In this document: positions 15,526-47,523 of the stretch, piece by piece
How positions within the stretch are numbered: position 1 is the first letter of the stretch
Layout: every line of letters starts with the position of its first letter
Source: a virus
IMG/VR virus record: IMGVR_UViG_3300045988_172415
DNA length: 64,000 nucleotides
Strand: one strand, 5' to 3'
Made by a program: the position numbers and the translations under genes
The notes under the pieces: generated by a model
Databases searched by the model: none
What the model was told of the DNA's origin: nothing
Seen by the model: the letters and a program-made list of their open reading frames with translations, nothing else

Positions 15526-15546
15526 CAATATGATGAACGCTAAAAG

Positions 15547-27784: not shown

Positions 27785-29540
27785 TAAAGACATTAAAACC
27801 GAACCACGGTTCATGACCATGATTCAGAAAGACCTCCTCCCGACATGCAAGGCGTTGAATCTCGACGTTGACCCGTTCGCCAACGCGCGAACCGTGTTCA
27901 TCGACCGTGACAGCGTAGGACGGATTCTCTCCTACATGAGCGACCATGAAATCAACCCCGAATGGTACGGCCTACTGCCTGATAATCTGTTCGTCGGAAC
28001 CGGACTGCCGGTACTCACCGGCGTCGAAGGCGAATACTTCGCCCGTATGACCGGACGAAACCTCGACAAGAAAGTCGCGGCGAAAACATTCATCGCGGAC
28101 ATGGAAGCCTACTGGCTGAGCAAGAACAATCTGAAACGGACTGACGGTACGAAAAGCAGCGGAACCACACTCGGTTTCGGACGTTGCCCCGGACTACGCG
28201 AAGCCAGTCGATACAACGAACGCATCTTCAAAAGCAACGAATACGAGTACACGAATCCCGTGGACGAGTACGGCATCGACACTGTTTCACGTTACCGTCA
28301 GGTTGGTGAAATCTACAATGAGGTCGGCCAATGCTTCAGGGGAATGGCACAGGCGCGTACTCCCCTCGCACCATTCGTCTTCCTCACCCATAAGGAATAC
28401 GAGGACGGACTGGACACGGTTGTGAACCACTGCCCATACATCACCCATTCGGACGCCACCCGCATCATCGACGGGATGAGACAGTTCCCTCCGAAACGTA
28501 GCGTGGACAGGTTCATGCTCGCTTTCACCATGACAGCGTTCGCGTTCGCCATGAATCAGGTCGAGGAATCCGAACAGTACGAGACGGTCGAAGTGAAACC
28601 ACCGAAAACCGAAATCAGACGTCATTCCGGCGCTCCGAAAACCACGTTGCTCATCCATTTGAAACCGGAAGAGCCAGCACCCAAGGCCACGCCATCCTAT
28701 GCCGGTGAAACCGACGAATACGATTGGGATAGCATCACCGGACGGGTCGAAACCATCACTCCGGACGTTGCCAAGGAAATGCTCGGCGTGAACACCAACA
28801 ACCGCAACGTGAGCCGCACACAGGTCGAACTGTTCGCCCGAACCATGGCGCAGAAGGCTTGGAAAATGAACGGCGAAGCCATCAAATTCAGCAACACGGG
28901 ACGCTTGTTGGACGGCCAGCACAGGCTCCTCGCATGCGTCGAATCCGGTGTTCCGTTCCGCACTCTGGTCATTCGCGGACTGCCCGAAGACACGCAGGAG
29001 ACCATGGATGCGGGCAAGAGCCGCACCATGGCTAACGTGCTCGAACTGAAAGGCCGTAACAACGCCAAACAGCTTTCCACCGTGGCCCGTTCCATCTATC
29101 TGAGCGAACAGTTGGGTGTGGAAGCCGCATGCGTCAACAACATGTCACCGACCCGAAATGAACTGTTGGCATTCATCGAAAGCACTCCGCAATTGGAGGA
29201 TACGCTACGACAGGCCAGCACGTTCTACACGAAAAGCAACCATCTCATGTCCATCAGCATGGCCGCGCTCCTCTACTGGACGTTCAACGAAATCGACGGT
29301 GAGGCGTGCGAACGGTTCTTCGACATGCTCGCCACCGGCGCCAACCTTGACGAGGGAAGCCCCATTCTCGTACTCCGCAACACGCTGTTCGACATCAACA
29401 AGCGTGGAGCGCACAGCGACCGTCCAACCCGCCGACGCATCGTCGGAATCACCATCAAAGCGTGGAACAAATGGCGTGAGGGAGCGACTGTGAAACTCCT
29501 CAAATTCTCTCCGAACGAACAGTTCCCGGACGCAATCTGA
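27777..29540 (+). CDS. DGQHR-domain (DndB/ParB-like superfamily) protein with a ~300-aa N-terminal extension
   Basis: The C-terminal half contains 'NTGRLLDGQHRLLACVESG', the exact DGQHR motif of the DndB-type ParB-like fold. The N-terminal 300 aa is not recognisable. Confidence 0.5.
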   Translation: MPNKDIKTEPRFMTMIQKDLLPTCKALNLDVDPFANARTVFIDRDSVGRILSYMSDHEINPEWYGLLPDNLFVGTGLPVLTGVEGEYFARMTGRNLDKKVAAKTFIADMEAYWLSKNNLKRTDGTKSSGTTLGFGRCPGLREASRYNERIFKSNEYEYTNPVDEYGIDTVSRYRQVGEIYNEVGQCFRGMAQARTPLAPFVFLTHKEYEDGLDTVVNHCPYITHSDATRIIDGMRQFPPKRSVDRFMLAFTMTAFAFAMNQVEESEQYETVEVKPPKTEIRRHSGAPKTTLLIHLKPEEPAPKATPSYAGETDEYDWDSITGRVETITPDVAKEMLGVNTNNRNVSRTQVELFARTMAQKAWKMNGEAIKFSNTGRLLDGQHRLLACVESGVPFRTLVIRGLPEDTQETMDAGKSRTMANVLELKGRNNAKQLSTVARSIYLSEQLGVEAACVNNMSPTRNELLAFIESTPQLEDTLRQASTFYTKSNHLMSISMAALLYWTFNEIDGEACERFFDMLATGANLDEGSPILVLRNTLFDINKRGAHSDRPTRRRIVGITIKAWNKWREGATVKLLKFSPNEQFPDAI

Positions 29541-31328: not shown

Positions 31329-32726
31329 ATGCCAACAACATTGATAATCGTCGCGGCAGTGGCGATACTCATCATCCTGCTCGCAACCGCAAGCTACAAG
31401 GTCTGCCCCGCCGACCGAGTCATGGTCATCACCGGGCCGGGTGGACGACGCTTCGTTTCCGGCGGAAGCGCGTTCATCATACCCTTCATCATGCGCGTGG
31501 ACTGGCTCTCCCTCGGAGCGGTGCAGTCGCTCCTGAGAACCGACACGCCGATTCCGACGAAGGACGCAATCCTCATCGACGTGAACGCCGTCGCGAACTT
31601 CCAGATAGCATCCGAGACCATGACCGTGGACGAGAACGGTAAACAGGTGAAGGCGTTGGAGAACGCCGCCAAGAACTATCTGAACCAGTCCAAGGAGCGC
31701 ATGGAGAAGGACGTGACGCAGGTGCTTTTGGGCAAGCTGCGCGAGGTCATCGGCAAGACCGAGTTGAAGGAGCTCATGGAGAACAGGGACACGTTCGCTG
31801 CGACCGTGGCCGAATCCGCCCGCGTGGACATGGAACGGCTTGGCCTTCAATTGACCACGTTCAACATTCAAGACTTCACCGACCGTCAGAACGTCATCGC
31901 CAACATGGGCGCTGAAATGGCCGCCGAAATCAGCCGGAATGCGAAGCTCGCGTCCATCAACGCGGAACAGGATGTGGCCGTCCGTCAGAACCAGCTCGAC
32001 CTGAAACGAGCCGAACTCCAATCCATCTCCGACAAGGCGCAGGCCGAGGCTGACGCGGTGAAGGGCATCACCGCCGCCGAACAGTCCAAGACCCTCAAGG
32101 TCAAGGAGCAGGAGGCGGAAATCGCCGCCGCCGAAAAGAAGGCAGTCCTCGAACAGAAGAACGCCGAAATCGAAGAGCAAAAACTGAACGCGACCATCCG
32201 CAAGAAGGCCGACGCCGACAGATACGCCGCCGAACAGCAGGCCGACGCGCAAGTGTACACGACCCGCAAGCATGCGGATGCGGAACTGTATCTACGCCAG
32301 CAGGAGGCTCAGGCCACCCAATCCACCGCCGACGCGGACGCGCACGCGACCGAGGTCAAAGGCAAGGCTGAAGGTTCCGCCGCACAGGCCAAGGGCGTGG
32401 GCGAGGCGGAGGCAATCCGCGCTCAGGGCGAGGCGTACAACTCGATGAACAACACGTACATCCTCGCCCAACAGTACATTCAGATTCTCCCCGACATGGT
32501 TCGAGCCGCCGCCGAACCGCTCACCAAGGTTGACCACATCACCATGTATGGCGACGGAAACAGCACGAAGCTCGTGGGCGACACGGTGAACAGTGTGAGC
32601 CAGTTGAGTGAGGGATTGTCTCAATCCTTGGGCATCGATTTGAAAGCCTTGCTGAACAGTATGGTGGCCGGTCATGCCGCCGGTTCCGCACTAGGTGGGA
32701 AAGGTTCCGAACAGTCCGGAAACTAA
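31329..32726 (+). CDS. flotillin-like SPFH/band-7 protein
   Basis: N-terminal TM followed by an SPFH domain. A long coiled-coil region has Ala/Glu/Gln/Lys repeats (KAQAEADAVK..., AEIEEQKLNA...). Confidence 0.7.
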   Translation: MPTTLIIVAAVAILIILLATASYKVCPADRVMVITGPGGRRFVSGGSAFIIPFIMRVDWLSLGAVQSLLRTDTPIPTKDAILIDVNAVANFQIASETMTVDENGKQVKALENAAKNYLNQSKERMEKDVTQVLLGKLREVIGKTELKELMENRDTFAATVAESARVDMERLGLQLTTFNIQDFTDRQNVIANMGAEMAAEISRNAKLASINAEQDVAVRQNQLDLKRAELQSISDKAQAEADAVKGITAAEQSKTLKVKEQEAEIAAAEKKAVLEQKNAEIEEQKLNATIRKKADADRYAAEQQADAQVYTTRKHADAELYLRQQEAQATQSTADADAHATEVKGKAEGSAAQAKGVGEAEAIRAQGEAYNSMNNTYILAQQYIQILPDMVRAAAEPLTKVDHITMYGDGNSTKLVGDTVNSVSQLSEGLSQSLGIDLKALLNSMVAGHAAGSALGGKGSEQSGN

Positions 32727-32744
32727 CCCGTTCAGGGATATGTT

Positions 32745-32779
32745 GGAGGGTATGGGAAGCCATGCCCTCCTTATTTTTA
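32745..32779 (+). terminator. rho-independent terminator after the flotillin gene
   Basis: An 11-bp stem GGAGGGTATGG/CCATGCCCTCC with a GAAG loop, followed by TTATTTTTA. Confidence 0.5.
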
Positions 32780-32905
32780 AGGGCTGAAAGCATTCTTTCA
32801 AGGTTTTTAATGAGGGTGCGTGCGGTATATTAGGAATGTAATCCGATATTGACCCCGTTCGAGGAATGAACGCGCGCCGGGTCTAGTAAGGAAAGGAAAA
32901 CAAAG

Positions 32906-34636
32906 GTGAAAACCAAAAACCTGTTGAAGGCAACGGTCGCCACGCTTGTGGCCGGTGCCATGGGTTTGGCTGGAGTTGGCTCCGCCATGGCGGCTGATAC
33001 TCGTGTTGACGCATCCAAGCTTGGTGAGGCTGCTCGTCAGACGTTGACCGTCGCTGCTAATGGTGATATTAGCAATCGCACGTTGAAGGCTGTGCCGCTC
33101 GCCTACTATTCGTATGCGCAGACTGATGGTACTAATATTACCGGCTTTGACCTGATTGACGCGGGCAAGGCTTCTGCCATTGCTGACGCACTGACTAAAG
33201 CCCATATTGACACCCAGTCCAAGAAAGACCAGACTGCCGGATACGACTATAATGCGTCCAATCCGATGGTGTGGGTCGTGCAGAATCTCCTTGATTCCGA
33301 GAACAGCCCGTGGGCTGGCAAGCTTCGTGACTTCATCGACCAGTTGAAGAACGAGGCCGCCGTCACCGGCGACAAGGGCACCGCGTTCGCCAAGGGCGCC
33401 GACGCCAAGCATATGACCGCATCAGTCCGTCCGGGCGTGTATGCGGTCGTGGACACCACCACGGCCGGTCAGGCGTCCATCGTCATGTTCAACGGCACCG
33501 GCATCGACGGCAAGACCACGTTGAAGAACGGCGACAAGACCTACACGCTGGGCACCGTGGACTATAAGGTGCATGACGCCGCAGTCAGGAAGGCTATCAC
33601 CTCTGTTGAGAATGGTGATGTGGATGAGAAAATCGGTGAGGACCATGAGGATGAGGGGGCTCGCCAAGCAGGGAAGAAATATTATGCGGTAGCCAAGACC
33701 TCCATCGGCAAGAAGGTCTCTTTCACGATGGGCGGCGCGGTGCCTGTTTGGACTGGCTACGACCATTATTATTATGCGCTCAACGATACGTATTCGGATG
33801 GTCTGACTTTCAACCCGGATAGTGTGAATGTCACTGTCGGTGGTAAGGCTTTGACTGCTGGCAAGGATTACAAGGTGACGACCGAGGCGGGCAAGTTCCA
33901 TATCCTGTTCGCCCCGACCGCTGATGGTTCTTCCGACATCATCGCCGCCAAGACCACGTTCCCGGTCGATGCGGAAGTGCTTGTCACTTATGACATGACC
34001 GTGAACAAGAACGCCCACGTGGACGGTGTTGACACCAACACGAGCGAGGTCGAATACTCCCATAATCCGAACACCGTCACCGACCATGAGAAGACTCCGG
34101 GCGACACCAACTACGTGTACGTCGGCAAGTTCACTCTGACCAAGACCGATACGAACAATGCTCCGCTCGCGGGTGCCGTGTTCAACATCAAGGATGCCAA
34201 GAGCAATATCGTCAAGTTCGTCAAGGTGGGTGATAACGAGTATCGTGTTGCCGACTCGACTGAGGCCGCTACCGCAAGCGCCGACATCACCACCACCGAT
34301 AAGAACAATGGCGTCATCACCTTGAAGGGCTTGTACGGTGCCTACACGGTGACTGAAACCAAGAGTCCGTTCGGCGGCAGCATTCTGCCGGAGTTCACTC
34401 TGACCGTTGGCGTGGCCCAGTCCAAAGACCATAACACCAGCACTTCGTCCCTCACCAAGTTCAAGGATGATGCCAACCATCTGGCCTCCAAGACCAGTGA
34501 CGATGGAGTGACCGTCATCAACGCCCGCAACATCGCTGACATGCCGAAGACCGGTGCGGTCTGGCTGTCCATCTTCGGCGTGATGACCGTCCTGTTGGCT
34601 GGCGCTTCCGCCCTGCTGCTTCGTCGCAAGGCGTGA
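32906..34636 (+). CDS. sortase-dependent pilus major subunit (LPXTG-like cell-wall anchor, MPKTG variant)
   Basis: GTG start with an RBS. Signal peptide, CnaB-type pilin E-box 'YGAYTVTETKSPFGG', and a C-terminal 'MPKTG' followed by a hydrophobic helix and 'RRKA'. Confidence 0.65.
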   Translation: MKTKNLLKATVATLVAGAMGLAGVGSAMAADTRVDASKLGEAARQTLTVAANGDISNRTLKAVPLAYYSYAQTDGTNITGFDLIDAGKASAIADALTKAHIDTQSKKDQTAGYDYNASNPMVWVVQNLLDSENSPWAGKLRDFIDQLKNEAAVTGDKGTAFAKGADAKHMTASVRPGVYAVVDTTTAGQASIVMFNGTGIDGKTTLKNGDKTYTLGTVDYKVHDAAVRKAITSVENGDVDEKIGEDHEDEGARQAGKKYYAVAKTSIGKKVSFTMGGAVPVWTGYDHYYYALNDTYSDGLTFNPDSVNVTVGGKALTAGKDYKVTTEAGKFHILFAPTADGSSDIIAAKTTFPVDAEVLVTYDMTVNKNAHVDGVDTNTSEVEYSHNPNTVTDHEKTPGDTNYVYVGKFTLTKTDTNNAPLAGAVFNIKDAKSNIVKFVKVGDNEYRVADSTEAATASADITTTDKNNGVITLKGLYGAYTVTETKSPFGGSILPEFTLTVGVAQSKDHNTSTSSLTKFKDDANHLASKTSDDGVTVINARNIADMPKTGAVWLSIFGVMTVLLAGASALLLRRKA

Positions 34637-34715
34637 GATTGGAGATTGGAATACTGCCGTATGAGAAAACTTTTCTGACCGTTTGACGGTTGGAAAAGCA
34701 TGAAATGTTCCGCTT

Positions 34716-34753
34716 GGCGTGTCGGGAACCCAAATATCGACACGCCACTTTTT
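34716..34753 (+). terminator. rho-independent terminator between the pilin and sortase genes
   Basis: Stem GGCGTGTCG...CGACACGCC followed by ACTTTTT. Confidence 0.5.
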
Positions 34754-34770
34754 AGATTCTTTATAACCGC

Positions 34771-35676
34771 ATGGGAGGGGTTTTGGGAAAACATACGGCG
34801 AAACCGAAAGGCTTGGGAAATCGAGCCATAGCGGGACTTCTCTGCCTAATCCTATCCGCCCTGTCCGGAACCATCCCATTCATTCTCATGATTTCGAACA
34901 GCAGCCAATCCAACCGGTTGACCGACTCCCACGCGCAAGCCGTGGAAAACACTGACGTGAAACGAATCGCCCAAGAGTATGCGGACGCGCAAGCCTACAA
35001 TCAACGCCTATACGAGGAAGGCCAGCCCATTCTTGGTGAGGCGGAAGACCCTTGGACGGGCGTCAACAAGTCCGAAACGGACAACACGTATCGGAAGCAA
35101 CTATCCACCCCCAAGGATGGGGTCATGGCTACCATCAAATATCCACGCTTGGGCATCAACCTGCCCATCCGGCATGGCACGTCGCAAAATGTGTTGGCCG
35201 CTGGAGCTGGACACTTATACGGTTCCAGTCTCCCCGTCGGTGGCAAGAACACGCATACTGTCATATCCGCTCACACGGGTTTGGCCGACCAGCTCATGTT
35301 CGACAAGCTGCGAGGCTTCGGCAGTGAAGCCAAAAAGGGAGACGTCTTCTATTTGATAACCGCCGGACATATGCTCGCTTACAAGGTCACGGATATTAGT
35401 GTGGTAGACCCATCCGACTTTTCTAAACTGAAAATCGTCGCCGGAAAAGACCTCTCCACACTATTGACCTGCACGCCATACGGCATCAACAACAAGCGAC
35501 TCTTGGTGACCGGCACGCGCGCCAGCATGCCACACCCCGCGCCCAAACCCGAAAACGCGCCGAAAGACCACACGAACCAATGGCTCATGCTGTACGTCGG
35601 CGGCTTCTGGCTTGCGGTAATCATCATCACCATTCTCATCATCCGTAGAAAAAACCACGCAAAGAAGGAACACTAA
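34771..35676 (+). CDS. class C (pilus-specific) sortase
   Basis: N-terminal TM, catalytic 'HTGL' His, 'TLLTCTPYG' Cys motif, and the C-terminal TM anchor typical of class C sortases. Confidence 0.8.
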   Translation: MGGVLGKHTAKPKGLGNRAIAGLLCLILSALSGTIPFILMISNSSQSNRLTDSHAQAVENTDVKRIAQEYADAQAYNQRLYEEGQPILGEAEDPWTGVNKSETDNTYRKQLSTPKDGVMATIKYPRLGINLPIRHGTSQNVLAAGAGHLYGSSLPVGGKNTHTVISAHTGLADQLMFDKLRGFGSEAKKGDVFYLITAGHMLAYKVTDISVVDPSDFSKLKIVAGKDLSTLLTCTPYGINNKRLLVTGTRASMPHPAPKPENAPKDHTNQWLMLYVGGFWLAVIIITILIIRRKNHAKKEH

Positions 35677-38600
35677 TGGGTATTCTCAAAAAGCATGTGG
35701 CACATCCGGTAGCATTATTGGCCGCAATCGCCACACTGGCATCCGGCCTGACATGCATGACCAATCCGGTAGCCTCTCCAAAAGCGCATGCGGACGAGTT
35801 GAAACCTGCGTATGCTACTGCGAAAATCGTTAAGAAAGCCGACGGTACGGGGCATGGCACGAGTTCGCAAACGTTCGTGAATTCGAAGAACGGGTTCGCC
35901 ACGGGCGATGATTCCCCTACCGATGGCGTGGTCGCATCCGGTGATACGGTCGAATATTCATTGACGTTGAACTTCAACGCGGCGGGCAAGCGTACCATCA
36001 ACGTGAAGTTCGACTTGGACGACGCGCCGTATTTGCAGACTGCTGACGGTGGTGGCTTCTGCCAGCCGGGACAACTCGTCACCGCGAAGAAAAACAGTGA
36101 CGGCTCCTGCTCCTACACGGTTCCAGCCGGTGGCGTGGAAACCATGACCCAAACCTTCTATCTGAAAGCAAAAGACACGGGAGGCTTGGTCAAGCCGGGT
36201 CAGATTCCGAAAATCGTCGTCGCCCGCGAAGGTGGAACGTCAACCACGTATCGTACGGATGAGCTGACTGTAGTATCCGCTCCGGCGGCTGACTTGGTCA
36301 TTGACAATGGCGGCAATCCGGTGAAAGGCCAATACTCGTATGAGCATCGTACTTATTGGAGTCAGAACACCGACGCGACCGGCGATTTCACTATTCGTGC
36401 CGACGCGTTGACCTATCCGGGTTATTCGTCCACGAAGGGCGCGTCCACCAGCATCGATTGGACTACCAAAGTGGATATTTCCGACTTCCCGCAGAACACC
36501 GTGTGGACTGTAGGCGGTCAGCGGATTACCCGTAACAGTGATAAAGAACAGTATCTGACCGTATCCAGTGGCAAGAACGGTGCGGCGGCGACAATCAGCT
36601 ACAGGATTCCCGCCGGAACCGACGCGCTCAAAAACATGAAAGAAGGAGACGTCAAATATTACGATGTCCACCTTGTTCCCGACGAAACCGTGTTCAGCGT
36701 CAAAGACGATAACGGCGACGCACTGTTGAACATGGGCAAAGGTGGAGAACCCGGCTGGAACATTGGACGGGACAAGAGCACCTACAACAAGGATACGGGT
36801 GCCCGCGTCGGCTACCCGTACGCGAATAATGACTGGTCACGAGCCATCATCCAACGGCTCAAGCCGACTCCAGCTGGCAAGATTCCACTGTTCGGCAAAG
36901 GACTGCAACGTCCTAACACTGCGTCCAAGACCATGTTCGACAAGGAGAATCTGACGTTCGACGCCGCCGAAGGCAAAGCCGACATCTACCATTACTATTC
37001 CGACGGTTCCGGCGACACCGTGTCCCGTGGAACGCAAGTCAAAACCATTTTGGAAATGTATGCGGCGAACGTTACGGCGGACAAGCTTAAAAACACTACG
37101 CCGACCATGCAGGACGAGTGGGATAATACGCGCATGCGGTGGGATGGAAGCTTGGAAGTCACCCAGAACGGCGCTCCGGTTTCCGACTACAAAGTTCAAT
37201 GGGATGATAGCAAAGACAATTGGCATGACGGGGAACCATCCGACACAGACGCTCCGAACGTCAAGAAGATTCGGGTGACGTTCAACCCCGACACTTTGAC
37301 TTTGGGAAAGGGTGCGCCGAACGTTCAGGTCACGTTCAACACGCTCGCCATAGCCGACGTGTCCAAAGGCAATGTGGAAGCTTTGGATACGCTGACCGCA
37401 TGGCTTACCGAAGACGATAAGGCGAGCGTCACCAATTGGGTGTGGATTGCCAAGCCGGTAGACCCGACCACCAGTATCGACATCAGTCTAAAAGCCTACG
37501 ATGGTGAAGGCAATCAAGTGTATGCGAACAACAGTTCCAATCACCCGTCCGGAAGCGCAGTCGATTTGACTCCCGGCATGCGAGTGGATTATACGGTCAC
37601 GGAACAATTGCGCACCATTCTCCTGTCCAATACGAGCATGACGCCGACCATCACGGTGCCGAAACCGAAAGGCTTGTACAATCCGACCTGTGATGATTCG
37701 TTCTGGCAGATGAAAGTGGACGGGAATAATCTCGTGTTCACGCCACGTTCCGGCAAAGTCACGCCGGAAGTAGACCGTATGGGGTCGGCCACTTTGCCTG
37801 ACCTGCATTTCAGTGGCATCGTATCCAATCTCGCCACCGGGACTGTGACCGCCAGTGCGAATATGAGCGTGGACGTTGACGAGAACGGCGCATTGCAAGC
37901 CCAAACCATCAAAAGCAATACGCCCAGCGTCCCATTCCCTGTCTCCAATGCGGAAACCAACAGTGGCATCATGCGTGTGAAGACCACGAAGGCTGAAATC
38001 AGTGACCCGCTTACTTGGGAGTTCAACGTGTACGGCAAGGGCGGCGGACATACCGGCACCATGGATAGCATGCTACTGCTTCCTGCGAATGGTGATGAGA
38101 AGTACGTGCAGGACAAGCTGGTCGAATATGAGCGTGGATACAGCAACTATCATGGCTCCTACGAACTGACCCAGCCCGTCACGGTCAATATGGACAATTC
38201 GACCAGTACGACCGTCTACTATTCAACCACCACCGGAAAGAAGTCGGATAATCCGGCTGACTACGAGTGGAAGACATGGGATGAATTGTCCTCCATCGAG
38301 AAGAAGAACATCATCGCCATCCGACTGACCAGCACAGTCGTCGCGTCCGACGATAAACTGTCCTATTCGGCGGTGAACGGCGCCATCACGCTCACCCCAT
38401 CCGACAATGTGAAAGACGACAAGTACACGCTGTGGCTTGGCCGTAACTATTATTCCGACGCTTCCGACAAACCGGCGGGCAACCAGCCGTGGCCTGACGT
38501 GGCGAAGGTAGTGGCCGGTAGCATCAGCGGCACCGTCTGGTGGGATAAGGATGAGAACACGCTCATCGGTGACAGTGAAGAACGTATCGAAGGAGTGGAA

Positions 38601-41054
38601 GTCACCCTCGGCAAGCAGGATTCAAGCGGCGGCTGGCAGGCCGTCAAAACGGTGAAGACCGACAAGGACGGCTACTACGAGTTCAACCTGCTCCACTCCG
38701 GCACCTACCGTACTTCGGTGAAACGCAACACTGGCACCAGTACGGGTGATGGCGTGCAGACGCAGGTCAAAACCTACTATGGCAAGCTCGAAAACGTGAC
38801 GAACACGCGAAGCTGGTCGAACAAAATCAAGTCCAACGCGAAAGACACGTCCGACGACATCCACCTAGGCATCGGCGCAGACCAGAAGAACGTGGACTAC
38901 GGGTATGCGAAACCAGACCCGAAAGCCACCGTGGACAAAACCGTCACCGGCACCAGTTGCACCGATACGAAATGCGTCATCAACTGGGATGTCAAAGTAC
39001 AGAATTCTGGCACTAGTCGTTTTGATACTTCCAGTGTCGTTTCTGACCGTATGAGCGCCGACGTGCATGATGTTTCCGCTACCGCCGGTACGGTTTCTAT
39101 CGAGTCTGGTGGTGCGAAGCAGGTTGCGACGAGTGGCGACCATAAGTTTGTGTTGACGAACGAGGGCTTGTTGTATGCGTGGGGTAACAACCAGTATGGT
39201 CAATTAGGTTTCAAGCCTGACACGACGAATACCGCTACCCCAACGAACGTGAACAAGCCGACCATCGTCAACGGTAGTTGGCTGAAAGTCGCCGCCGGTG
39301 GCAAGCATTCCGCCGCCATCAGCACGGACGGCCACTTGTACACGACTGGTTGGAACGGTAAAGGCCAATTGGGTACGGGTGATACGGATAATCGTGACCA
39401 GTGGACTCTAGTCGCAGAAGATAAGACGTTTGTTGACGTGGCGTGCGGCAACCAGTTCACTGTGGCGATAGCAAGTGACGGCACCTTGTGGGTGGTCGGA
39501 AAAGTCAGTTCCACCTCGTATTCAACGTGGACGCAAATCCAGTCGGGTAAAACGTTCACGCAGGTCAGCGCCAGCACGTACAGGTGGGTCGCGTTGACGT
39601 CCTACGGCGGTTGTGTGGTGGACGGCGACGAGTTTTTCTCTATTGGTTTCACGCAAGTTGTCGCCTCATTCGGCAACGCCTACGGGTTGACTGACGCGGG
39701 TACAGTGATAGTGCTCGTCGACGGAGGTGATAGCGGTATCGGCCAGTCCAATGTGTCTAATCTGAGGTACATCACCCGTATCGGTGGCGGATACAACACT
39801 TTCTACGCCATCGACAAGAACCAACACTTGTGGGCGGCTGGCTGGAATGGTGACGGCCAATTAGCGAACGGTAAGACCGGTACAGGCAGGTATTGGACCA
39901 ACGGCAGTACGAGCGGCAACGCGGATATTGTTTCCACGCCAATCGATACGGGCATTACCGCATCCGACGTTGCGGGCGGCGACCGTGACGTGCTCATTGT
40001 CGGCAAGCAGGTCATGATTGCGGGCTTCGACCCGTATGGTGACGGCAAGACGGGTGGCGCACGTTCCACCGGTTTGAAGGGAATGGTCGTATCGTCCGAC
40101 CCGACCGCCGTACCGGTCGAACCGTTGAGCGAGTCCACGGAGAAGGGGTTGACGACCCGCACGTACAATCTGCCGTATGCGATTGAGTCGGGCGGCTATG
40201 TCATCTACCATTTCACTGGCACCGTTGACCGTGAAACTGCGGATACTACCAAGTGGTCTCCAACTGAGAAAGACGAGTGGGTCAAGAAGAATACGAAGAC
40301 CATTCTCAACCAAGCATGGTTCACCTCCGAACACACGCCATACTCAGGCACGCCACATGCAAGCGGCAAAACCAAGCCGGACCCTCCGAACGCATCCAAA
40401 CTGGATACGAACACGAATGACGTGACCGGCAATCCGACATGCCGCACCGACACCGACTATACGGAGGAAGGACGCCAACACTGGTTCAGCACGTCCGATG
40501 AGGACTCCTGCGACCAAGTCGGCACCATCATCACACCAACCACCACCGCGAAGAAACTCGGTTCCATCAGCGGCCTGTATTGGGAGGATACCAACAAGAA
40601 CGGCATTCAAGATGAAGGTGAGAACACGCATTTCGCCGGTCAGACGGTCATTCTGACTGACGAGAACGGCAAACAGTTGGCAACCACCAAGACCGACAAG
40701 GATGGCAAGTACATTTTCGAACGTCTGGACGCGAACGGCAACAAATACCGTATCCAATTCACCAAAGTGAACCACCGGGACTTCACCACGCCGGATGTGG
40801 GAGACAAGACTCCTGCGACGGATGGAAGCTCCACTGATTCGGATGCTTACACGGATGAAGCCAACAAGCTGACCATCACCCTCACCCAAGATGCTCCAAC
40901 CAAGGAGCATGTGGATGCGGGTGTCCTGCCTGAAACATGGTTGGCGACCATGCCGCACACGGGCATGGGATTGCTGTTGCCGCTCCTCATGCTCGTCAGC
41001 ATCAGCGGACTCGTCGCGGCAATCATCCTCCTACGAAAGAAGGAAGAACAGTGA
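35676..41054 (+). CDS. giant cell-wall-anchored adhesin (putative pilus tip/ancillary adhesin) with RCC1-repeat β-propeller and SdrD-B/CnaB-like domains
   Basis: 1,792 aa. Signal peptide. RCC1 repeats ('LYAWGNNQYGQLG', 'LYTTGWNGKGQLGTGD', 'LWAAGWNGDGQLANG'). Two SdrD-B-like modules ('SGTVWWDKDENTLIGD...DKDGYYEF', 'SGLYWEDTNKNGIQDEGE...DKDGKYIF'). C-terminal 'MPHTG' followed by TM and 'RKKEEQ'. Confidence 0.7.
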   Translation: MGILKKHVAHPVALLAAIATLASGLTCMTNPVASPKAHADELKPAYATAKIVKKADGTGHGTSSQTFVNSKNGFATGDDSPTDGVVASGDTVEYSLTLNFNAAGKRTINVKFDLDDAPYLQTADGGGFCQPGQLVTAKKNSDGSCSYTVPAGGVETMTQTFYLKAKDTGGLVKPGQIPKIVVAREGGTSTTYRTDELTVVSAPAADLVIDNGGNPVKGQYSYEHRTYWSQNTDATGDFTIRADALTYPGYSSTKGASTSIDWTTKVDISDFPQNTVWTVGGQRITRNSDKEQYLTVSSGKNGAAATISYRIPAGTDALKNMKEGDVKYYDVHLVPDETVFSVKDDNGDALLNMGKGGEPGWNIGRDKSTYNKDTGARVGYPYANNDWSRAIIQRLKPTPAGKIPLFGKGLQRPNTASKTMFDKENLTFDAAEGKADIYHYYSDGSGDTVSRGTQVKTILEMYAANVTADKLKNTTPTMQDEWDNTRMRWDGSLEVTQNGAPVSDYKVQWDDSKDNWHDGEPSDTDAPNVKKIRVTFNPDTLTLGKGAPNVQVTFNTLAIADVSKGNVEALDTLTAWLTEDDKASVTNWVWIAKPVDPTTSIDISLKAYDGEGNQVYANNSSNHPSGSAVDLTPGMRVDYTVTEQLRTILLSNTSMTPTITVPKPKGLYNPTCDDSFWQMKVDGNNLVFTPRSGKVTPEVDRMGSATLPDLHFSGIVSNLATGTVTASANMSVDVDENGALQAQTIKSNTPSVPFPVSNAETNSGIMRVKTTKAEISDPLTWEFNVYGKGGGHTGTMDSMLLLPANGDEKYVQDKLVEYERGYSNYHGSYELTQPVTVNMDNSTSTTVYYSTTTGKKSDNPADYEWKTWDELSSIEKKNIIAIRLTSTVVASDDKLSYSAVNGAITLTPSDNVKDDKYTLWLGRNYYSDASDKPAGNQPWPDVAKVVAGSISGTVWWDKDENTLIGDSEERIEGVEVTLGKQDSSGGWQAVKTVKTDKDGYYEFNLLHSGTYRTSVKRNTGTSTGDGVQTQVKTYYGKLENVTNTRSWSNKIKSNAKDTSDDIHLGIGADQKNVDYGYAKPDPKATVDKTVTGTSCTDTKCVINWDVKVQNSGTSRFDTSSVVSDRMSADVHDVSATAGTVSIESGGAKQVATSGDHKFVLTNEGLLYAWGNNQYGQLGFKPDTTNTATPTNVNKPTIVNGSWLKVAAGGKHSAAISTDGHLYTTGWNGKGQLGTGDTDNRDQWTLVAEDKTFVDVACGNQFTVAIASDGTLWVVGKVSSTSYSTWTQIQSGKTFTQVSASTYRWVALTSYGGCVVDGDEFFSIGFTQVVASFGNAYGLTDAGTVIVLVDGGDSGIGQSNVSNLRYITRIGGGYNTFYAIDKNQHLWAAGWNGDGQLANGKTGTGRYWTNGSTSGNADIVSTPIDTGITASDVAGGDRDVLIVGKQVMIAGFDPYGDGKTGGARSTGLKGMVVSSDPTAVPVEPLSESTEKGLTTRTYNLPYAIESGGYVIYHFTGTVDRETADTTKWSPTEKDEWVKKNTKTILNQAWFTSEHTPYSGTPHASGKTKPDPPNASKLDTNTNDVTGNPTCRTDTDYTEEGRQHWFSTSDEDSCDQVGTIITPTTTAKKLGSISGLYWEDTNKNGIQDEGENTHFAGQTVILTDENGKQLATTKTDKDGKYIFERLDANGNKYRIQFTKVNHRDFTTPDVGDKTPATDGSSTDSDAYTDEANKLTITLTQDAPTKEHVDAGVLPETWLATMPHTGMGLLLPLLMLVSISGLVAAIILLRKKEEQ

Positions 41055-41065
41055 AAGGAACAAGA

Positions 41066-41998
41066 ATGGGCGAACACGCCACACAATCACACGGGAGCCG
41101 TCACATGGTTCGGCGGCTCCTCGCCACCCTCGCCATCATGAGCGCGGTCTGCGGCGGCTTCCTCACCGGTAGTGCAATAGCCGCCGAACCAGCCAAATGC
41201 AATACTGGCGTGGACAAGGTTTGCTACGCGGGCTATAACGCGGCGGGATTGAAACAGATTGCCGACGATTTAAGCGAGAAAGGCAAAGGAAGCACATACT
41301 ATGCCGCAATGGAAAAGAACCTGACCGACGGGGTCAAAGGCACGCTCACCCTATCAGACGGCTCGAACCTCCCATTCCGACTCATCGGCATCCTCCACGA
41401 CGACAAAGCCGACGGAAGTGGACGAAAAGCAGGATTGACGTTCATGGCTTGGAACGCGTTACCGAAAGCGTATGCCATGAACAATAGTCACACCAATAAT
41501 GGCGGCTGGCGTGACAGTCTTCTCCGCAATCAGATGAACAATGGTGAAATCTGGAACCAATTCCCAACCGACTTCCAAAACAACGTCACAACCGTGCTGA
41601 AACAAACCAACAACATGGCCTACGGAAGCACAGTCGGTTCAAGCGCGTCAGCCACGGCAGACAAAGTATGGCTCGTCTCCTACCGTGAACTCGTACCAAC
41701 CTTATACGATGGTTGGAAGACCTCTGGTGGTTTCCAAGCGTTGAATCAGGAGGGAAGCCAATACGAGTATTTCCACGGTAAGGTGACAAATAACTGGTCG
41801 GGTAATAGCATTCTCTCCGGCATCTACAAGACCGTTTCCGGTTCCGCTCCTCTTGGTGCTTACGGCAGCTTTTGGTGGGAGCGTTCGCCCGACCCGGACC
41901 TCTACGGCCATTTCCTCCTAGTGAGCTCGTACGGCGACCCCAGCTACAGCGACCGTGCCGACTATCGCTACTCCGTTGTCCCCGCTTTCTCCTTCTAA
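41066..41998 (+). CDS. DGR target protein: secreted protein with a C-terminal variable region
   Basis: Start at 41066 with RBS GAAAGGA; the track ORF begins at 40937 inside the adhesin gene. Sec signal peptide (MVRRLLATLAIMSAVCGGFLTGSAIAAEP). The last ~50 codons are a VR homologous to the downstream TR. Confidence 0.7.
   Translation: MGEHATQSHGSRHMVRRLLATLAIMSAVCGGFLTGSAIAAEPAKCNTGVDKVCYAGYNAAGLKQIADDLSEKGKGSTYYAAMEKNLTDGVKGTLTLSDGSNLPFRLIGILHDDKADGSGRKAGLTFMAWNALPKAYAMNNSHTNNGGWRDSLLRNQMNNGEIWNQFPTDFQNNVTTVLKQTNNMAYGSTVGSSASATADKVWLVSYRELVPTLYDGWKTSGGFQALNQEGSQYEYFHGKVTNNWSGNSILSGIYKTVSGSAPLGAYGSFWWERSPDPDLYGHFLLVSSYGDPSYSDRADYRYSVVPAFSF
41831..41984 (+). repeat. DGR variable repeat (VR) at the 3' end of the target gene
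   Basis: A 154-bp match to TR 42629–42782. All 24 mismatches fall at positions where TR has adenine. The 3' ~19 bp are identical to TR (IMH-like GC-rich end 'CGCTACTCCGTTGTCCCCG'). Confidence 0.85.
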
Positions 41999-42011
41999 TC
42001 CCCAATCCTTG

Positions 42012-42036
42012 GGTGGTGGGGTTCATCCCCACCACC
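42012..42036 (+). other. GC-rich hairpin just downstream of the VR/target stop
   Basis: Perfect 10-bp inverted repeat GGTGGTGGGG-TTCAT-CCCCACCACC, 14 nt after the stop. Confidence 0.6.
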
Positions 42037-42070
42037 CCTCCAAACTCAAATCTCACACAAAAGGAGTCCT

Positions 42071-42586
42071 ATGACGGTTCCCGCAAGCAAACGTACAAAA
42101 GCCAAAAGCGAATATGCGAATCAGGCCAGAATCGTGCTCTTGGCTACCAGAAATCTGTTCCGCAAATGGCCTAAAAGCCGTAACTGCATTGAAACCGTGC
42201 ATGTCATGCATATCGCCTACGAAATGTACTCCTCCGCCTACAGTGCCGACATCATTTATGCAAGCACTGTAGAAGAGCATGAGATGAAACTGCAACTGTT
42301 GTGCAAGGCCCAAGGCATGCTGAACTCACTCTCCGGTCTTGTGGACGATTGGATGGAGTTTCCTCCACGGGAAAAAGACTTGGAAGCCTACAGGAAATAT
42401 CCGGAAGGCGACCCCAGATACAATCCCGTCGTCAAGGAGAAGAAATTCGTGAACTATGCGGGAACCCTCTACAAGGCGATGGGCGTGTTCACCGGAGCCG
42501 TCAAGTATGAGCGAGACCAGTTGAAGAAAGCTAAAAACGCCGAGTCGAAAACGAACACTATAATGGATACTCGGGCGCAAGCCTAA
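42071..42586 (+). CDS. avd: accessory variability determinant (Avd)-like protein
   Basis: 171-aa basic helical protein with RBS AAGGAG, sitting between the VR gene and TR, which is the canonical DGR Avd position. It is larger than typical ~120–130-aa Avd proteins. Confidence 0.45.
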   Translation: MTVPASKRTKAKSEYANQARIVLLATRNLFRKWPKSRNCIETVHVMHIAYEMYSSAYSADIIYASTVEEHEMKLQLLCKAQGMLNSLSGLVDDWMEFPPREKDLEAYRKYPEGDPRYNPVVKEKKFVNYAGTLYKAMGVFTGAVKYERDQLKKAKNAESKTNTIMDTRAQA

Positions 42587-42628
42587 AATATAATTGAACA
42601 AAATCGGCCATATCCAAACTATGGTGAC

Positions 42629-42782
42629 ACCGTTTCCGGTTCCACTCCTCTTGGTGCTAACAACAACAATTGGTGGGAGCGTTCGCCCAACCCGAACAAC
42701 AACAACAATTTCCTCCAAGTGAACTCGAACGGCGACCCCAGCTACAACAACAATGCCAACAATCGCTACTCCGTTGTCCCCG
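42629..42782 (+). repeat. DGR template repeat (TR)
   Basis: A non-coding copy of the VR, rich in AAC/AAT triplets. Every difference from VR is at a TR adenine. A spacer of ~190 bp separates it from the RT start. Confidence 0.85.
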
Positions 42783-42976
42783 ATTCCTCTTACCAAAAAC
42801 TAACATCAGATAGGCCAGTAGCCCAATGGGTGAAAGCCTCCCGAAGGGGAAGGGGATATGGTCGAATGCGCGGCCCCTCGAAAAATGGGTTGCGTGTGAA
42901 ATAGGTTGAGGGAGATATTAAGACTGTCGGGAACGACGGATACTCGCCCCTTAAGCTGGGCGTCCAACATCATTGC

Positions 42977-44206
42977 ATGTCTTGGGTTGTTGCCGACGAC
43001 CTGCCCTCAACCATTCTTTTCTCTTTCCCTAGTGAAGGAAGCATTAAAATCGTGAATGCGAGTCAAAGACGTAGAAGACGCCAACGCAGACTGCAACAAC
43101 GCTCGGATGATAAGTACAGGAAGCTCCACCGTTACATCGACTTCCAACAAACATTCGGATTCGACGCGCTCTACCAAGCCGCAAGAAAATGCAAACGCGG
43201 CGTCACATGGAAAAACACAGTGTTGAACTTCGACAATAGGCGTGCCGTCAACTGTTGGAAACTCGCCCAAGAATTAGAGGACGGCACATACAAGAAGAGA
43301 GCGCCAATCCGATTCGACATTCCCGAACGAGGCAAACTCCGCCACATCAGCGCGGTATCCTTCCGAGACCGGGTGGTGCAACGCGCCTTATGCGACAACA
43401 GTCTCGTCCCCATCGTGGAAAGCCAACTGATATACGATAATGCGGCAAGCCTACCGAAACGTGGAACATCGTTCGCCCGAAAACGGTTCGAACTACACTA
43501 TAAGCGGGCTTTGGGCAAATGGGAGCATCCGTATGCTGTCATCTTCGACTGTTCCAACTATTTCGGAAGTATCAGCTCCCAACGAGCGTTCGATATGATT
43601 TCCACCCTGTACCGGAGCATCGCCCGCACCGGACGGGAGAAGCAGGATGTGGAACGGATTCTAACCGTATTGAGAATCTTCGTATTGGACGAACCTCACT
43701 TGGGTTTAGGCAATCAGACAAGCCAAACCATGGCTATCTGGTATTTGAACAAGGTTGACCACTGGTGCATGTCACAAGGATTCTACGGACGGTATATGGA
43801 TGATGCCTACTGTTTCTGCAAGAATCGTGAACAGGCCGAACGTGTGCTGGCCGGTTACGAGCGGCATGTCAATCAATTGGGATTGCGGTTGAACAAGCGC
43901 AAGACCCGCATAGTGGACTGTCGCACCGGTCAACTCACATTCCTGAAACGCGTATACAGCGTACAGGATGACGGCAGTATTCTTATCCGCATGCACCATA
44001 AGGCGTTGCGTGCAAGCCGACGGCATGCGCGTAACCTTATCCGCTCATATGATGGCGTGCATGTGGGATTGCGGACAGTTCAGGATTCTTGGACGAGCCA
44101 TGAGAGCACACTGTCGGGTCTAACTCACCGTCGTGGACTGTGCGCTCGGGAGAAAGCGTGGTATCGGAGGCATTGTGAAATGCGGAAGCTGGCTTTTCAC
44201 CCGTGA
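42977..44206 (+). CDS. DGR reverse transcriptase
   Basis: RT motifs 'ISAVSFRDRVVQRAL', 'LGLGNQTSQTMAIWYL' (the DGR-specific GNxTSQ in place of the group-II QGxxSP) and 'YGRYMDDAYCF' (YMDD). The start codon is uncertain. Confidence 0.85.
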   Translation: MSWVVADDLPSTILFSFPSEGSIKIVNASQRRRRRQRRLQQRSDDKYRKLHRYIDFQQTFGFDALYQAARKCKRGVTWKNTVLNFDNRRAVNCWKLAQELEDGTYKKRAPIRFDIPERGKLRHISAVSFRDRVVQRALCDNSLVPIVESQLIYDNAASLPKRGTSFARKRFELHYKRALGKWEHPYAVIFDCSNYFGSISSQRAFDMISTLYRSIARTGREKQDVERILTVLRIFVLDEPHLGLGNQTSQTMAIWYLNKVDHWCMSQGFYGRYMDDAYCFCKNREQAERVLAGYERHVNQLGLRLNKRKTRIVDCRTGQLTFLKRVYSVQDDGSILIRMHHKALRASRRHARNLIRSYDGVHVGLRTVQDSWTSHESTLSGLTHRRGLCAREKAWYRRHCEMRKLAFHP

Positions 44207-44475
44207 TTTCCGGACTTTCCAGATTGGTGGAGGGGTGTAATCTGCTGGAAGCGGTGGCGCAGAATCTTCCGCTTCCTCAATCGTTTGGATGAGATTTCGT
44301 GAGGCTTGGATTGTATCGTATTTTACTCGGCATGCTTGTCGGCTAGTTTTTCTTCCCAGCTTGGTGTTACACTGGGTTTACTTGCATTTCCTTCCTCGGG
44401 ACTTCGCCCATGTGGGGCTTTAGAGGTTATCAGCGCATTGGTCAGAGTATGCCGTTTGAGTGAAAGGAAACTGTC

Positions 44476-45087
44476 ATGGCAGGTTTTGATGATATTACGG
44501 TCACTCGCAGTGATGGCCGTTTGAAGGTTAAGGCTCCATATAATCCGTTGTTCGCCCGTCGCTCCCGCGCGTTGGGTGGAACGTTTGATGACAAGTTGAA
44601 GACTTGGACGTTCGATATGCGTGTGGAAAGGCTGGTGTTCGAAGCTTTAGACAAATACTTCTGGTGGCATAAGGGCGTGGACGCTGAAAAGCGTGTCACA
44701 GTCACCATCGACCCCTACGACTACTTGTACGCGTACTCCAAGCAGGATAGCGACATTATCTGGTTCGCTGGTCGAATCCTAGTCGAAAAATATCAGCCCG
44801 ACCGTCCACCGCGCATGATGCCGAATGTGGCTCTCGTGGATGGCATGTGGCCTAAAACCGGCTTGTACACGGGGTTGAATCTCAGTCCCGACAAACTCCG
44901 ATTATTGGTATGGGATGTTCCAACCAGTTTTCTGGAACGACTGTCGTCCGGCAAGTATGAGTTGTCTGAGCCGGATGGTGACACGTTGACTGCGGTTGAC
45001 GTTCGTATTCAGGCTATGGAGGAACGGTTAGGCCGGTTGAGGGAACTCCGAACCCGACTCGCCTCTAATAGTGAGGATGGTGAATGA
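44476..45087 (+). CDS. hypothetical protein (203 aa)
   Basis: ORF with RBS GAAAGGAAA; its end overlaps the next gene (ATGA). Confidence 0.4.
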   Translation: MAGFDDITVTRSDGRLKVKAPYNPLFARRSRALGGTFDDKLKTWTFDMRVERLVFEALDKYFWWHKGVDAEKRVTVTIDPYDYLYAYSKQDSDIIWFAGRILVEKYQPDRPPRMMPNVALVDGMWPKTGLYTGLNLSPDKLRLLVWDVPTSFLERLSSGKYELSEPDGDTLTAVDVRIQAMEERLGRLRELRTRLASNSEDGE

Positions 45088-46091
45088 TGCTCTCCGTGCC
45101 GATTAATGGTCAAGTCCAGTCGCGTCTCATTCCGCCCACGTTCGTGGAAGACAACATCAGCGACATGTTCAAGGCTGTGGACGCCGGACACAATATCGTC
45201 GTGACGGCAGTGGACGAGTACGGTAATCGAACCAGTATTACCACGCCGGATAATGTGAATCATGACATGCTGGGGCGTCCTCTCGAATTCGCGTCCCATC
45301 CCGTACTGATGCGGAATGTGCGCCGTTGGATGGTTTGGCTGTTGCAAGCGCAATACTGCAAGGATTACAAGTGGGATACGAACAGGCTTGGAGGTTGGAT
45401 GGAAGTGTTGGGTTTACCAGCCGACCTTGATATTCCCGTAACGGAGGAACATTTACGCGTGTTGAAGCCTGTGTTTAACAAGGATGATGCCGACCCGTAT
45501 CGGCTTGTCGCACGATACGACAAGCAACATTATGCTTCATGCACCCTCAGCACTCTCATACGGTTAGCCGAACAAACCACGCCAAACTATGCCCTGAACA
45601 ATCCCACCCGCTGGTGCCAAACCGACCGATACCGCAAACTCAGCATCCAACCCAATCCGAAAGAAAACTGGGACGGAATGGACAGGGTACGCGACTGTTG
45701 GAGCGGATGCGAATGGGCATACCCCGCATTGGAACGCTACTATAATCCGATTCGACTATTACGCGACGAATACCGGCGGGGAGGACTACCTGAAACCTTC
45801 CACTATCCAATACACACGACAAAAGGCGAATACCGGTTGGCGAAAGGACAAATCAGCCCCCACGCAACAATCCTCCTCAACGGCAAGCCCGTAGGACTCA
45901 TGTTCAGCGACGATTGCGAGGAACCATTCACCGACCGGATACCACCCGAATGGTGCGCCACACCCTTACCGGAAAACTATAAGACCACGCCACTCAACAG
46001 AAACATTCCCGTAAACGGCGAATTCAAACCATCATTCCAGCAAGCCATGCTGGGATTCGTGGAATGGTATGAGAAAACGCACAAGGGATAG
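45084..46091 (+). CDS. hypothetical protein (335 aa, Trp/Cys-rich)
   Basis: ORF translationally coupled to the upstream gene. Confidence 0.4.
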   Translation: MMLSVPINGQVQSRLIPPTFVEDNISDMFKAVDAGHNIVVTAVDEYGNRTSITTPDNVNHDMLGRPLEFASHPVLMRNVRRWMVWLLQAQYCKDYKWDTNRLGGWMEVLGLPADLDIPVTEEHLRVLKPVFNKDDADPYRLVARYDKQHYASCTLSTLIRLAEQTTPNYALNNPTRWCQTDRYRKLSIQPNPKENWDGMDRVRDCWSGCEWAYPALERYYNPIRLLRDEYRRGGLPETFHYPIHTTKGEYRLAKGQISPHATILLNGKPVGLMFSDDCEEPFTDRIPPEWCATPLPENYKTTPLNRNIPVNGEFKPSFQQAMLGFVEWYEKTHKG

Positions 46092-46199
46092 CAAAAGAGG
46101 AAAGCCCCCTTAGTTGAGGGGCTTTCTGGTAAATGTCAAATGGTGGCAAGCTTGAATTCTTCCAGCTTGTCCATGCTAAACCGCCCAGAACAACAAAAC

Positions 46200-47357: not shown

Positions 47358-47472
47358 TGCTGTCTCCTTGATTTTATAATAATTATAATAAGTATAATGC
47401 TTTAAAAGTTAATGAGGAACAGTTTTCGTTTTGGTTCCCGTCTCTCTTTTTGTGTTTTATCCTCTCTTGAGG

Positions 47473-47496: not shown

Positions 47497-47523
47497 GTAA
47501 GTTGAAGGACATAAGGAGAAAAA

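Follow-up and report, generated by a model that had tools for sequence, protein, structure and literature searches.

What is a diversity-generating retroelement (DGR) doing directly behind the genes for a sortase-assembled pilus, and where does the protein that it diversifies act? The question is raised by a 64,000-nt stretch of DNA (IMG/VR virus record IMGVR_UViG_3300045988_172415; hereafter the window, meaning the whole stretch), in which a pilus operon and a DGR occupy 32906-44206, all on the plus strand (coordinates are positions in the 64,000-nt stretch). From the comparison of related loci, the DGR target gene, which encodes a DUF6273 protein, is a standing member of the pilus operon and not a passenger. 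We consider it rather probable that its product is a DGR-diversified lectin, co-produced with the pilus tip adhesin and displayed non-covalently on that adhesin or on the pilus, where it would provide variable adhesion specificity. The genes of the operon and the hairpin ahead of them are as follows.

32745..32770, plus strand: terminator-like hairpin and T-run 3' of the flotillin gene; 11-bp stem with 7 GC pairs, then TTATTTTT
32906-34636, plus strand: 576-aa major pilin; signal peptide, isopeptide domain of the CnaB type, YTVTETKSP (E-box-like), sorting motif MPKTG
34771-35676, plus strand: class C (pilus-polymerising) sortase, 301 aa, matching Pfam Sortase (5e-21) and NCBIfam class_C_sortase
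35676-41054, plus strand: giant adhesin, 1,792 aa, with Pfam domains and MPHTG, then a transmembrane helix and basic tail
41066-41998, plus strand: DGR target, secreted, 310 aa, DUF6273 / C-type-lectin fold, with neither a sorting signal nor a conserved lipobox

To compare loci, the contexts of target homologues were fetched at decreasing identity and aligned by tblastn. Of 45 informative contigs, 44 (31 plasmid-type, 12 chromosomal-type and one contig binned as Senegalimassilia) had a homologue of the adhesin as the gene immediately before the DUF6273 gene, and sortase and pilin genes preceded the adhesin wherever the contig extended far enough. It is this adjacency that identifies the DUF6273 gene as a standing member of the operon. 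Target identity to the window protein was 73-96% in plasmid-type loci, 53-62% in chromosomal-type loci and 48% in the Senegalimassilia-binned locus, and in the last two classes the proteins of the operon shared 44-61% aa identity with those of the window. The junction itself is tight: in the window, the adhesin stop codon TGA (41052-41054) is separated from the target ATG (41066) by an 11-nt spacer that contains an AAAGGA ribosome-binding site. The plasmids have this 11-nt spacer, and in chromosomal loci the target ATG lies 14 nt ahead of the adhesin stop, so that the two genes overlap by 14 nt. There, the module neighbours plsC-gpsA-ddl (e.g. in B. moukalabense). An earlier reading of this stretch, made from its letters and open reading frames (the sequence-only reading), had placed the target directly downstream of a 1,792-aa RCC1/SdrD-B adhesin with an MPHTG anchor, and a major pilin and class C sortase ahead of that adhesin; both statements hold. 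Its wider proposal, that the DGR target is tied to the pilus/adhesin locus, is strengthened by the pilin-sortase-adhesin-DUF6273 order of the 44 contigs and by the chromosomal overlap.

Could a phage-derived DGR cassette simply have inserted behind an unrelated pilus operon on one plasmid? The avd-TR-RT genes (described below) and the genes downstream of them do behave as an indel among related plasmids. However, the indels spare the target, which adjoins the adhesin in all plasmid-type, chromosomal-type and Coriobacteriia-binned loci but one, and a chance adjacency of this kind is highly improbable. The sole exception is a plasmid variant (L022/L050, IMGVR_UViG_3300029740_000003) with a 9-kb deletion equivalent to window 32365-41332, which covers the 3' end of the flotillin gene, the pilin, sortase and adhesin genes, and target codons 1-89, including the signal peptide. 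This variant retains avd-TR-RT and a variable region unlike any other, and its DGR may be mutating, now or formerly, a gene whose product is no longer exportable. Other collections contributed little: a scan of GTDB representative genomes returned four loci, none from Bifidobacterium, presumably since such plasmids are not in the representatives, and neither PLSDB plasmids nor INPHARED phages gave a megablast match to the 11-kb locus. Named homologues of the target were found in Bifidobacterium pseudocatenulatum, B. moukalabense and one Bifidobacteriaceae isolate, while the genome of one isolate, GCA_020526265.1, represents the DGR-deleted form, and a protein search with the target against plasmids gave nothing but one Collinsella DUF6273 protein, 27% identical.

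The last stretch of the target gene and the sequence that follows it have the anatomy of a canonical DGR, in which information passes from a template repeat (TR) to a variable region (VR) with the help of a reverse transcriptase (RT).

41831-41991, plus strand: VR, codons 256-309 of the target
42011..42037, plus strand: post-VR hairpin, GC-rich, with an 11-bp stem and loop TTCAT, 12 nt past the target stop
42071-42586, plus strand: Avd-like accessory protein, 171 aa, basic, predicted four-helix bundle
42629-42789, plus strand: TR, non-coding, between avd and the RT gene, with 44 adenines and 17 AAY codons in the VR frame
42977-44206, plus strand: DGR reverse transcriptase, 409 aa (RVT_1), with YMDD and LGNQTSQ motifs read in translation

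Together, the VR, TR, RT and hairpin show that the locus is a canonical DGR. VR and TR differ at 26 of 161 nt, and 25 of the 26 mismatches fall at the 44 TR adenines, a distribution whose chance probability we estimate, by arithmetic from these counts, at ~1e-14. The last ~10 nt of the VR depart from the TR at non-A positions, and do so alike in every locus, as in an end of the initiation of mutagenic homing (IMH) type. The hairpin that follows sits where the target-recognition hairpin of a DGR lies and is unusually stable (dG -14.7 kcal/mol, z -4.8; 0 of 200 shuffles as stable). The combination of YxDD with [ILV]GxxxSQ in motif 4 is diagnostic of DGR-type RTs. The RT matched Pfam RVT_1 (2.7e-13) and the RT family phrog_1423 (2e-57); its best sequence match among solved structures was the DGR RT of Bordetella phage BPP-1 (8ub7_A, E 3.2e-13), and its nearest phage relatives were DGR RTs of gut phages, at no more than 34% identity. 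The Avd-like protein, by comparison, had no naming match in sequence searches of Pfam, NCBIfam, PHROGs or PDB, and its structural model was built on a shallow alignment, the homologue search having returned six close relatives only. No second VR for this TR was found within the 64-kb window.

Two further genes stand behind the RT gene.

44476-46091, plus strand: two conserved genes without functional assignment, 203 and 335 aa, overlapping by 4 nt

Each DGR-bearing copy has them behind the RT, 97-100% identical. Two of the three RT-removing deletions take them out, and across these deletions they are lost whole or in part. Their sole family match was phrog_18108, itself of unknown function, and they may form an accessory part of the DGR cassette.

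Natural variation indicates that this DGR is active in nature, as judged from VRs that vary against a constant TR. The exact RT sequence is present on many metagenomic contigs, and 14 VR/TR pairs from as many loci comprised 12 different VRs with TRs that were identical or nearly so. Mismatches between VR and TR numbered 14-25 at A and 1-2 at C, the bias of the window being repeated in the 13 other loci, and rare TR polymorphisms were mirrored in the cognate VRs. At the protein level, the 90%-identity cluster that holds the window target contains 753 distinct sequences, some of them from NCBI assemblies. Among 12 members sampled from it, all 12 differed from the window protein in a pattern confined almost wholly to the VR (26 differing positions, 25 of them in the VR at A-containing TR codons). 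Variation at A-coded positions was seen in two clusters (753 and 1,229 members). With ~25 variable residues, including those of the 17 AAY codons, up to ~1e25 peptides are possible.

The protein that carries this variation matched only one family, DUF6273 (E 5e-13), and was shown to have a C-type-lectin (CLec) fold with the VR on its C-terminal face. DUF6273 has been described as the C-type-lectin-like DGR target domain of gut phages (PMC10743442; bioRxiv 10.1101/2024.10.15.618418), which means that both the fold and the type of cassette were already known; in a Gram-positive surface protein that is anchored by sortase, it makes up the N-terminal domain (PMC12402451). The N-terminus of the window protein carries a basic/hydrophobic/AxA signal sequence (AIA-AE), judged by eye from the translation. 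The VR makes up its last 50 residues and, as in all homologues, the protein stops there (...SVVPAFSF) and carries no cell-wall sorting signal (CWSS; xPxTG, hydrophobic stretch and basic tail). On each of these points, the Sec-type signal, the missing sorting motif and the VR as C-terminus, the translation agrees with the sequence-only reading. Lacking a C-terminal sorting signal, the target was ruled out as a pilin or other covalently polymerised subunit. It was also ruled out as a lipoprotein: the candidate lipobox cysteine, Cys29 (AVCGG), is not conserved, being replaced by Gly, Ser, Ala or another residue in chromosomal-type homologues, which have a conserved A-x-A/D-E-P site instead. The sequence-only reading had held that its model would fail if the target were a lipoprotein or a homologue of phage receptor-binding proteins. 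The first is not the case; the second is so at the level of the family, DUF6273 being a domain of phage DGR receptor-binding proteins (PMC10743442). Despite that homology, the conserved synteny shows that the target has been recruited to the pilus operon.

The remaining genes of the operon have the content expected of a pilus locus, with a class C sortase and a shaft pilin that carries a CnaB-type domain, an E-box and a sorting signal, as in SpaA-type loci. The pilin matched the Pfam families GramPos_pilinBB (1.5e-18) and SpaA (2.4e-9) and scored 56.5 bits against the TIGR04226 isopeptide model, above its cut-off of 30; against the SpaH/EbpB model it scored 78 bits, under the cut-off of 95. 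Its translation ends in ...IADMPKTG followed by a transmembrane helix and RRKA, and inspection by eye showed no canonical WxxxVxVYPK pilin motif. The sortase scored 223.7 bits against NCBIfam class_C_sortase (cut-off 160). The adhesin consists of an uncharacterised N-terminal region of ~950 aa, an SdrD_B/CarboxypepD_reg region, an RCC1/RLD beta-propeller, a second SdrD_B region and the MPHTG motif. As the locus holds one shaft pilin, one sortase and one large CWSS protein, the adhesin is presumed from gene content to be the pilus tip subunit. The hairpin at 32745..32770 marks the upstream boundary of the pilus transcription unit, and the terminator scan found no comparable terminator between the pilin gene and the DGR target gene.

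Two further features of the pilus proteins were observed. In both pilus substrates (pilin end 34600-34636; adhesin end 40990-41054) the sorting motif is MPxTG and not LPxTG. The pilin has MPKTG, or MPKSG in the case of L020, whereas the adhesin has MPHTG or MPMTG. The motif is conserved over plasmid, chromosomal and Coriobacteriia-binned loci (L012, L013, L019, L020, L008), a pattern of sequence conservation that suggests a dedicated specificity of this class C sortase. Moreover, between otherwise near-identical plasmids (L002-L062), the pilin shared 64-98% and the adhesin 74-100% aa identity; the sortase (94-99%) and Avd and RT (mostly 96-100%) were all far less divergent. This suggests that recombination or diversifying selection acts on the exposed pilus proteins, besides the DGR.

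These observations can be assembled into a mechanism, the DGR steps of which follow the established mechanism of BPP-1. The TR would be transcribed, and the RT together with the Avd-like protein would copy it into cDNA with random misincorporation opposite adenines. Guided by the conserved 3' end of the VR and by the hairpin, this cDNA would take the place of the VR with which the adjacent gene ends, and the ~25 variable residues would form the presumed ligand-binding face of a Sec-exported CLec-fold protein. The target gene, with its conserved place at the end of a sortase-pilus operon and its translational coupling, would share one transcript with the other three genes, and its product would be made alongside the pilus adhesin in a matched amount. 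Following export and cleavage of the signal peptide at AxA, it would dock non-covalently on the wall-anchored adhesin or pilus, a mode of display suggested by its lack of a sorting signal. The function most likely served is adhesion of variable specificity, with host glycans, mucus or other microbes as ligands. Since the operon lies on a Bifidobacterium megaplasmid that resembles pMP7017, which is conjugative and comes from Bifidobacterium breve (PMC8313286, PMC10832533), the adhesion module could be moved between strains along with its mutator; on chromosomes, the operon would persist with a decayed DGR and a frozen VR. We infer the physical link of the target to the pilus, and likewise its co-transcription, its surface display and the nature of its ligand. 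A more specific arrangement, which we regard as possible but doubtful, is a two-part tip in which the anchored giant adhesin, perhaps via its RCC1 propeller, docks the secreted hypermutated lectin. If true, this would place a non-covalent, exchangeable and essentially unlimited binding repertoire on a sortase-assembled pilus, a display mode not described for Gram-positive pili.

Several points weigh against a pilus-displayed lectin. Nothing here places the target physically on the pilus and, without a sorting signal, it could not be polymerised covalently. The hydrophobic segment of the target is long (~22 aa) and could be an uncleaved membrane anchor. Co-transcription is deduced from gene spacing only. 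The L022/L050 plasmid indicates that diversification is not strictly dependent on the pilus genes. Finally, as contigs from different collections were not de-duplicated, the contig counts are upper bounds on the number of independent observations, and the Senegalimassilia assignment comes from the bin of a metagenome-assembled genome.

Some of the same observations would fit a lectin that acts alone, either secreted or retained at the membrane or wall by its N-terminus, with the shared operon serving for co-expression only and with glycans, immunoglobulin A, phage or other bacteria as examples of ligands. We rank this as the main rival, tentatively and with a good deal less than even confidence. 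It would explain the lack of a sorting signal, the long hydrophobic N-terminus fits a signal anchor, and one plasmid (L022/L050) holds a DGR and VR despite the loss of its pilus genes; in addition, the cellular DGR targets TvpA and LdtA are stand-alone surface proteins. However, strict adjacency to the adhesin and the 14-nt overlap persist over ~45-60% sequence divergence, conservation that is typical of proteins needed in a fixed ratio or in a complex. Likewise, the target of the pilus-less variant is truncated, lacks a signal peptide and is probably a dead remnant.

If the DUF6273 protein is a pilus-displayed lectin, what carries it from cell to cell? The window encodes RepA_C, ParA and DnaB proteins, and contigs with the plasmid-type locus reach 185-223 kb. 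Over ~25 kb, window 5.6-31.3 kb has the gene order of pMP7017 (39-60 kb there), with aa identities of 47-59%, and on this comparison of sequences the element is a diverged, distant relative of that plasmid. Shared features include ParA, a 1,250-1,335-aa protein, an 873-886-aa P-loop ATPase, DnaB and a similar overall size. Unlike the window, pMP7017 has a type I-E CRISPR-Cas system after dnaB, and no flotillin, pilus or DGR locus there. The terms conjugative and plasmid-borne are thus applied to the element on the strength of RepA_C/ParA and of this colinearity, and should be read as probable. No relaxase, coupling protein or VirB4 family was recognised among the proteins of the 64-kb window, which is part of the element only. 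A block at 10504-21068 on the minus strand, shared with pMP7017, encodes the 1,335-aa protein, small transmembrane proteins, the 886-aa P-loop ATPase, a 398-aa protein and a CobQ/ParA-like protein of 404 aa. The 886-aa P-loop and 1,335-aa proteins matched no curated family, the sole hint being a weak match to CD3337/EF1877 mobilome membrane proteins (E 0.003); the block may encode a transfer apparatus of a divergent, actinobacterial kind.

Between dnaB and the pilus operon, all plasmid-type contigs carry a flotillin/SPFH gene (31329-32726 in the window) with its own strong terminator, and this gene is absent at the equivalent position of pMP7017. One conceivable role for flotillin microdomains is to organise the sortase or the assembly of the pilus. 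Other cargo in the window comprises a GmrSD_C-type nuclease (4466-5491, minus strand), an AAA_16/STAND-like ATPase just beyond the DGR block (46200-47357, minus strand), a PHA02142-OB/RNA-ligase protein (62933-63988, plus strand) and a 587-aa protein (27777-29540, plus strand) with a strong match to phrog_5931 (4e-70). No tRNA genes or Rfam families were found in the window.

Given that the window is filed as a virus, the DUF6273 protein might instead be the receptor-binding protein of a virion, as in gut phages, with the pilus genes as unrelated cargo of a phage or phage-plasmid. IMG/VR lists 15 contigs carrying this RT (L021-L051, 90-217 kb) as viral, the DUF6273 protein and RT are most similar to gut-phage DGR parts, and the 587-aa neighbour matches a phage protein family (phrog_5931). 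Yet no capsid, portal, terminase or tail family was found among the window proteins scanned, the backbone is colinear with a plasmid demonstrated to conjugate (PMC8313286), and the target has a Sec signal and lies in a sortase operon that is also chromosomal, outside any prophage-like context. We therefore give the virion reading very little credence; the viral label in IMG/VR either is mistaken or points to a phage-plasmid.

The comparison of plasmid and chromosomal copies gives an outline of the history of the cassette. Each of the 25 plasmid-type contigs whose RT is intact also has the rest of the cassette. Five contigs of this type are without the RT, and three of these were compared with the window, where their deletions correspond to 42229-46248 (L016), 42184-47949 (L041) and 42157-45785 (L056), each leaving an avd stub. 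The RT-removing deletions take avd/TR/RT and never the target. No intact RT was found in chromosomal-type loci, several of which hold remnants: avd fragments (36-70% identity), pieces of the RT (L020, 65% over 71 aa; L070, 64% over 47 aa) and, in L012, the 3' end of a TR. The RT-less chromosomal loci (L012, L013, L019, L020, L068) nevertheless keep the hairpin after the target stop, with compensatory changes in the stem (GGGTGGTGGGG / GGGGGTGGGG / GCGGGCGGGG) and an invariant TTCAT loop. Its retention could reflect recent loss of the DGR, a second role as a terminator that lacks a T-tract, or VRs that can be targeted in trans. Nucleotide identity of the chromosomal VRs was 53-68%, and that of the remaining gene was mostly 77-89%, with one interval near 421-480 at 60%. 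The simplest reading of these alignments is that the DGR was attached to the operon in an ancestor and has been lost repeatedly, leaving the VR frozen, and that it is active in the megaplasmid lineage.

Homing of the plasmid TR in trans to the chromosomal VRs was considered and found no support, as no chromosomal VR resembles the TR at non-A positions; between the plasmid TR and L012, identity was 72% over 90 nt. With their VR ends and covarying hairpins, the chromosomal orphan copies might serve as substrates for a megaplasmid DGR in trans after conjugation. Separately, the chromosomal-type metagenomic locus L013 repeats part of the 3' half of the target at its positions 13304-13713, 2.8 kb farther downstream. 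This second copy is 97% identical over 300 nt and includes a diverged VR end. This may be a duplicated target fragment or a second VR.

This history bears on the function that the sequence-only reading had assigned to the target, a ligand for mating-pair formation or recipient recognition, with the DGR widening the host range of the plasmid. The idea has some basis: the intact version of the DGR is found on a megaplasmid backbone, and Gram-positive conjugation can employ surface adhesins, e.g. aggregation substance. It is nevertheless disfavoured and, in our judgement, unlikely. The four-gene module is also present on chromosomes, beside housekeeping genes; pMP7017, which is conjugative by experiment, does not have the locus; three independent deletions have removed the DGR from plasmids that share this backbone; and in a Bacteroides integrative and conjugative element (ICE), deletion of the DGR target left transfer efficiency unchanged (bioRxiv 10.1101/2024.11.15.621889). 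Adhesion to hosts or to other microbes, through a lectin carried on the pilus, remains the reading that we prefer.

Among the early colonisers of the human gut, bifidobacteria are key members, and sortase pili are among their known colonisation factors. If the preferred reading is true, a strain could tune its attachment to host glycans, mucus, antibodies or microbial neighbours within one lifetime, and hypervariable adhesion capacity could be handed on by conjugation. The locus raises a structural question, that of how a protein without an anchor is displayed. The repeated independent loss of the RT, with a frozen VR on chromosomes and on some plasmids, amounts to a natural experiment on when hypermutation pays.

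How does this system compare with those already known? With BPP-1 (Mtd/bAvd/bRT), the present DGR shares the adenine-specific flow from TR to VR, a CLec target whose VR is C-terminal, a post-VR hairpin, a four-helix Avd (predicted here) and an RT for which bRT is the best match of solved structure. It differs in gene order and host, in an Avd-like protein that is unrecognisable by sequence and in a target that is bacterial and secreted. The gut-phage DUF6273 targets, tentaclins and Mtd-like proteins of nd4/nd12 and Toutatisvirus (PMC10743442; bioRxiv 10.1101/2024.10.15.618418), share with the present target the domain family, in which the VR is C-terminal, as well as an Avd/TR/RT cassette and the persistence of target copies after DGR loss. 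Here, however, identity to them is at most 35% for the target and 34% for the RT, and a Sec signal and a pilus operon take the place of a virion module. Among cellular systems, the targets Legionella LdtA and Treponema TvpA are lipoproteins, whereas the present target has no conserved lipobox and is encoded within a pilus operon.

The closest parallel is in Bacteroides, in which DGRs diversify the tip adhesins of type V pili on ICEs (Macadangdang et al., bioRxiv 10.1101/2024.11.15.621889). Both cases involve a gut commensal, a DGR on a transmissible element and a pilus-associated adhesive target with a CLec-type variable face, and the Bacteroides DGR is active in human microbiomes, as the present one appears to be in nature. 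They differ in that type V pili assemble by strand exchange and are encoded on an ICE, whereas the pili here are sortase-polymerised Gram-positive pili encoded on a megaplasmid. Furthermore, the Bacteroides target is the pilin itself, whereas here it is a separate small protein, encoded after the tip adhesin and without an anchoring or polymerisation signal. Bifidobacterium DGRs have been counted already in surveys and prophage studies, and the literature searched gave no link of a DGR to sortase-dependent pili or to the pMP7017 family. The statement in the sequence-only reading that no such configuration had been described thus stands for sortase pili in that literature, but the broader combination of a DGR with a pilus adhesin and a conjugative element has already been published for Bacteroides. 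The same Bacteroides study mentions an uncharacterised, infant-enriched group of Actinomycetota DGRs (bioRxiv 10.1101/2024.11.15.621889), which the present locus may identify. What is new is the conserved adjacency of a DGR target to a sortase-pilus adhesin, which extends a known DGR-pilus theme from Bacteroidota to Gram-positive Actinomycetota.

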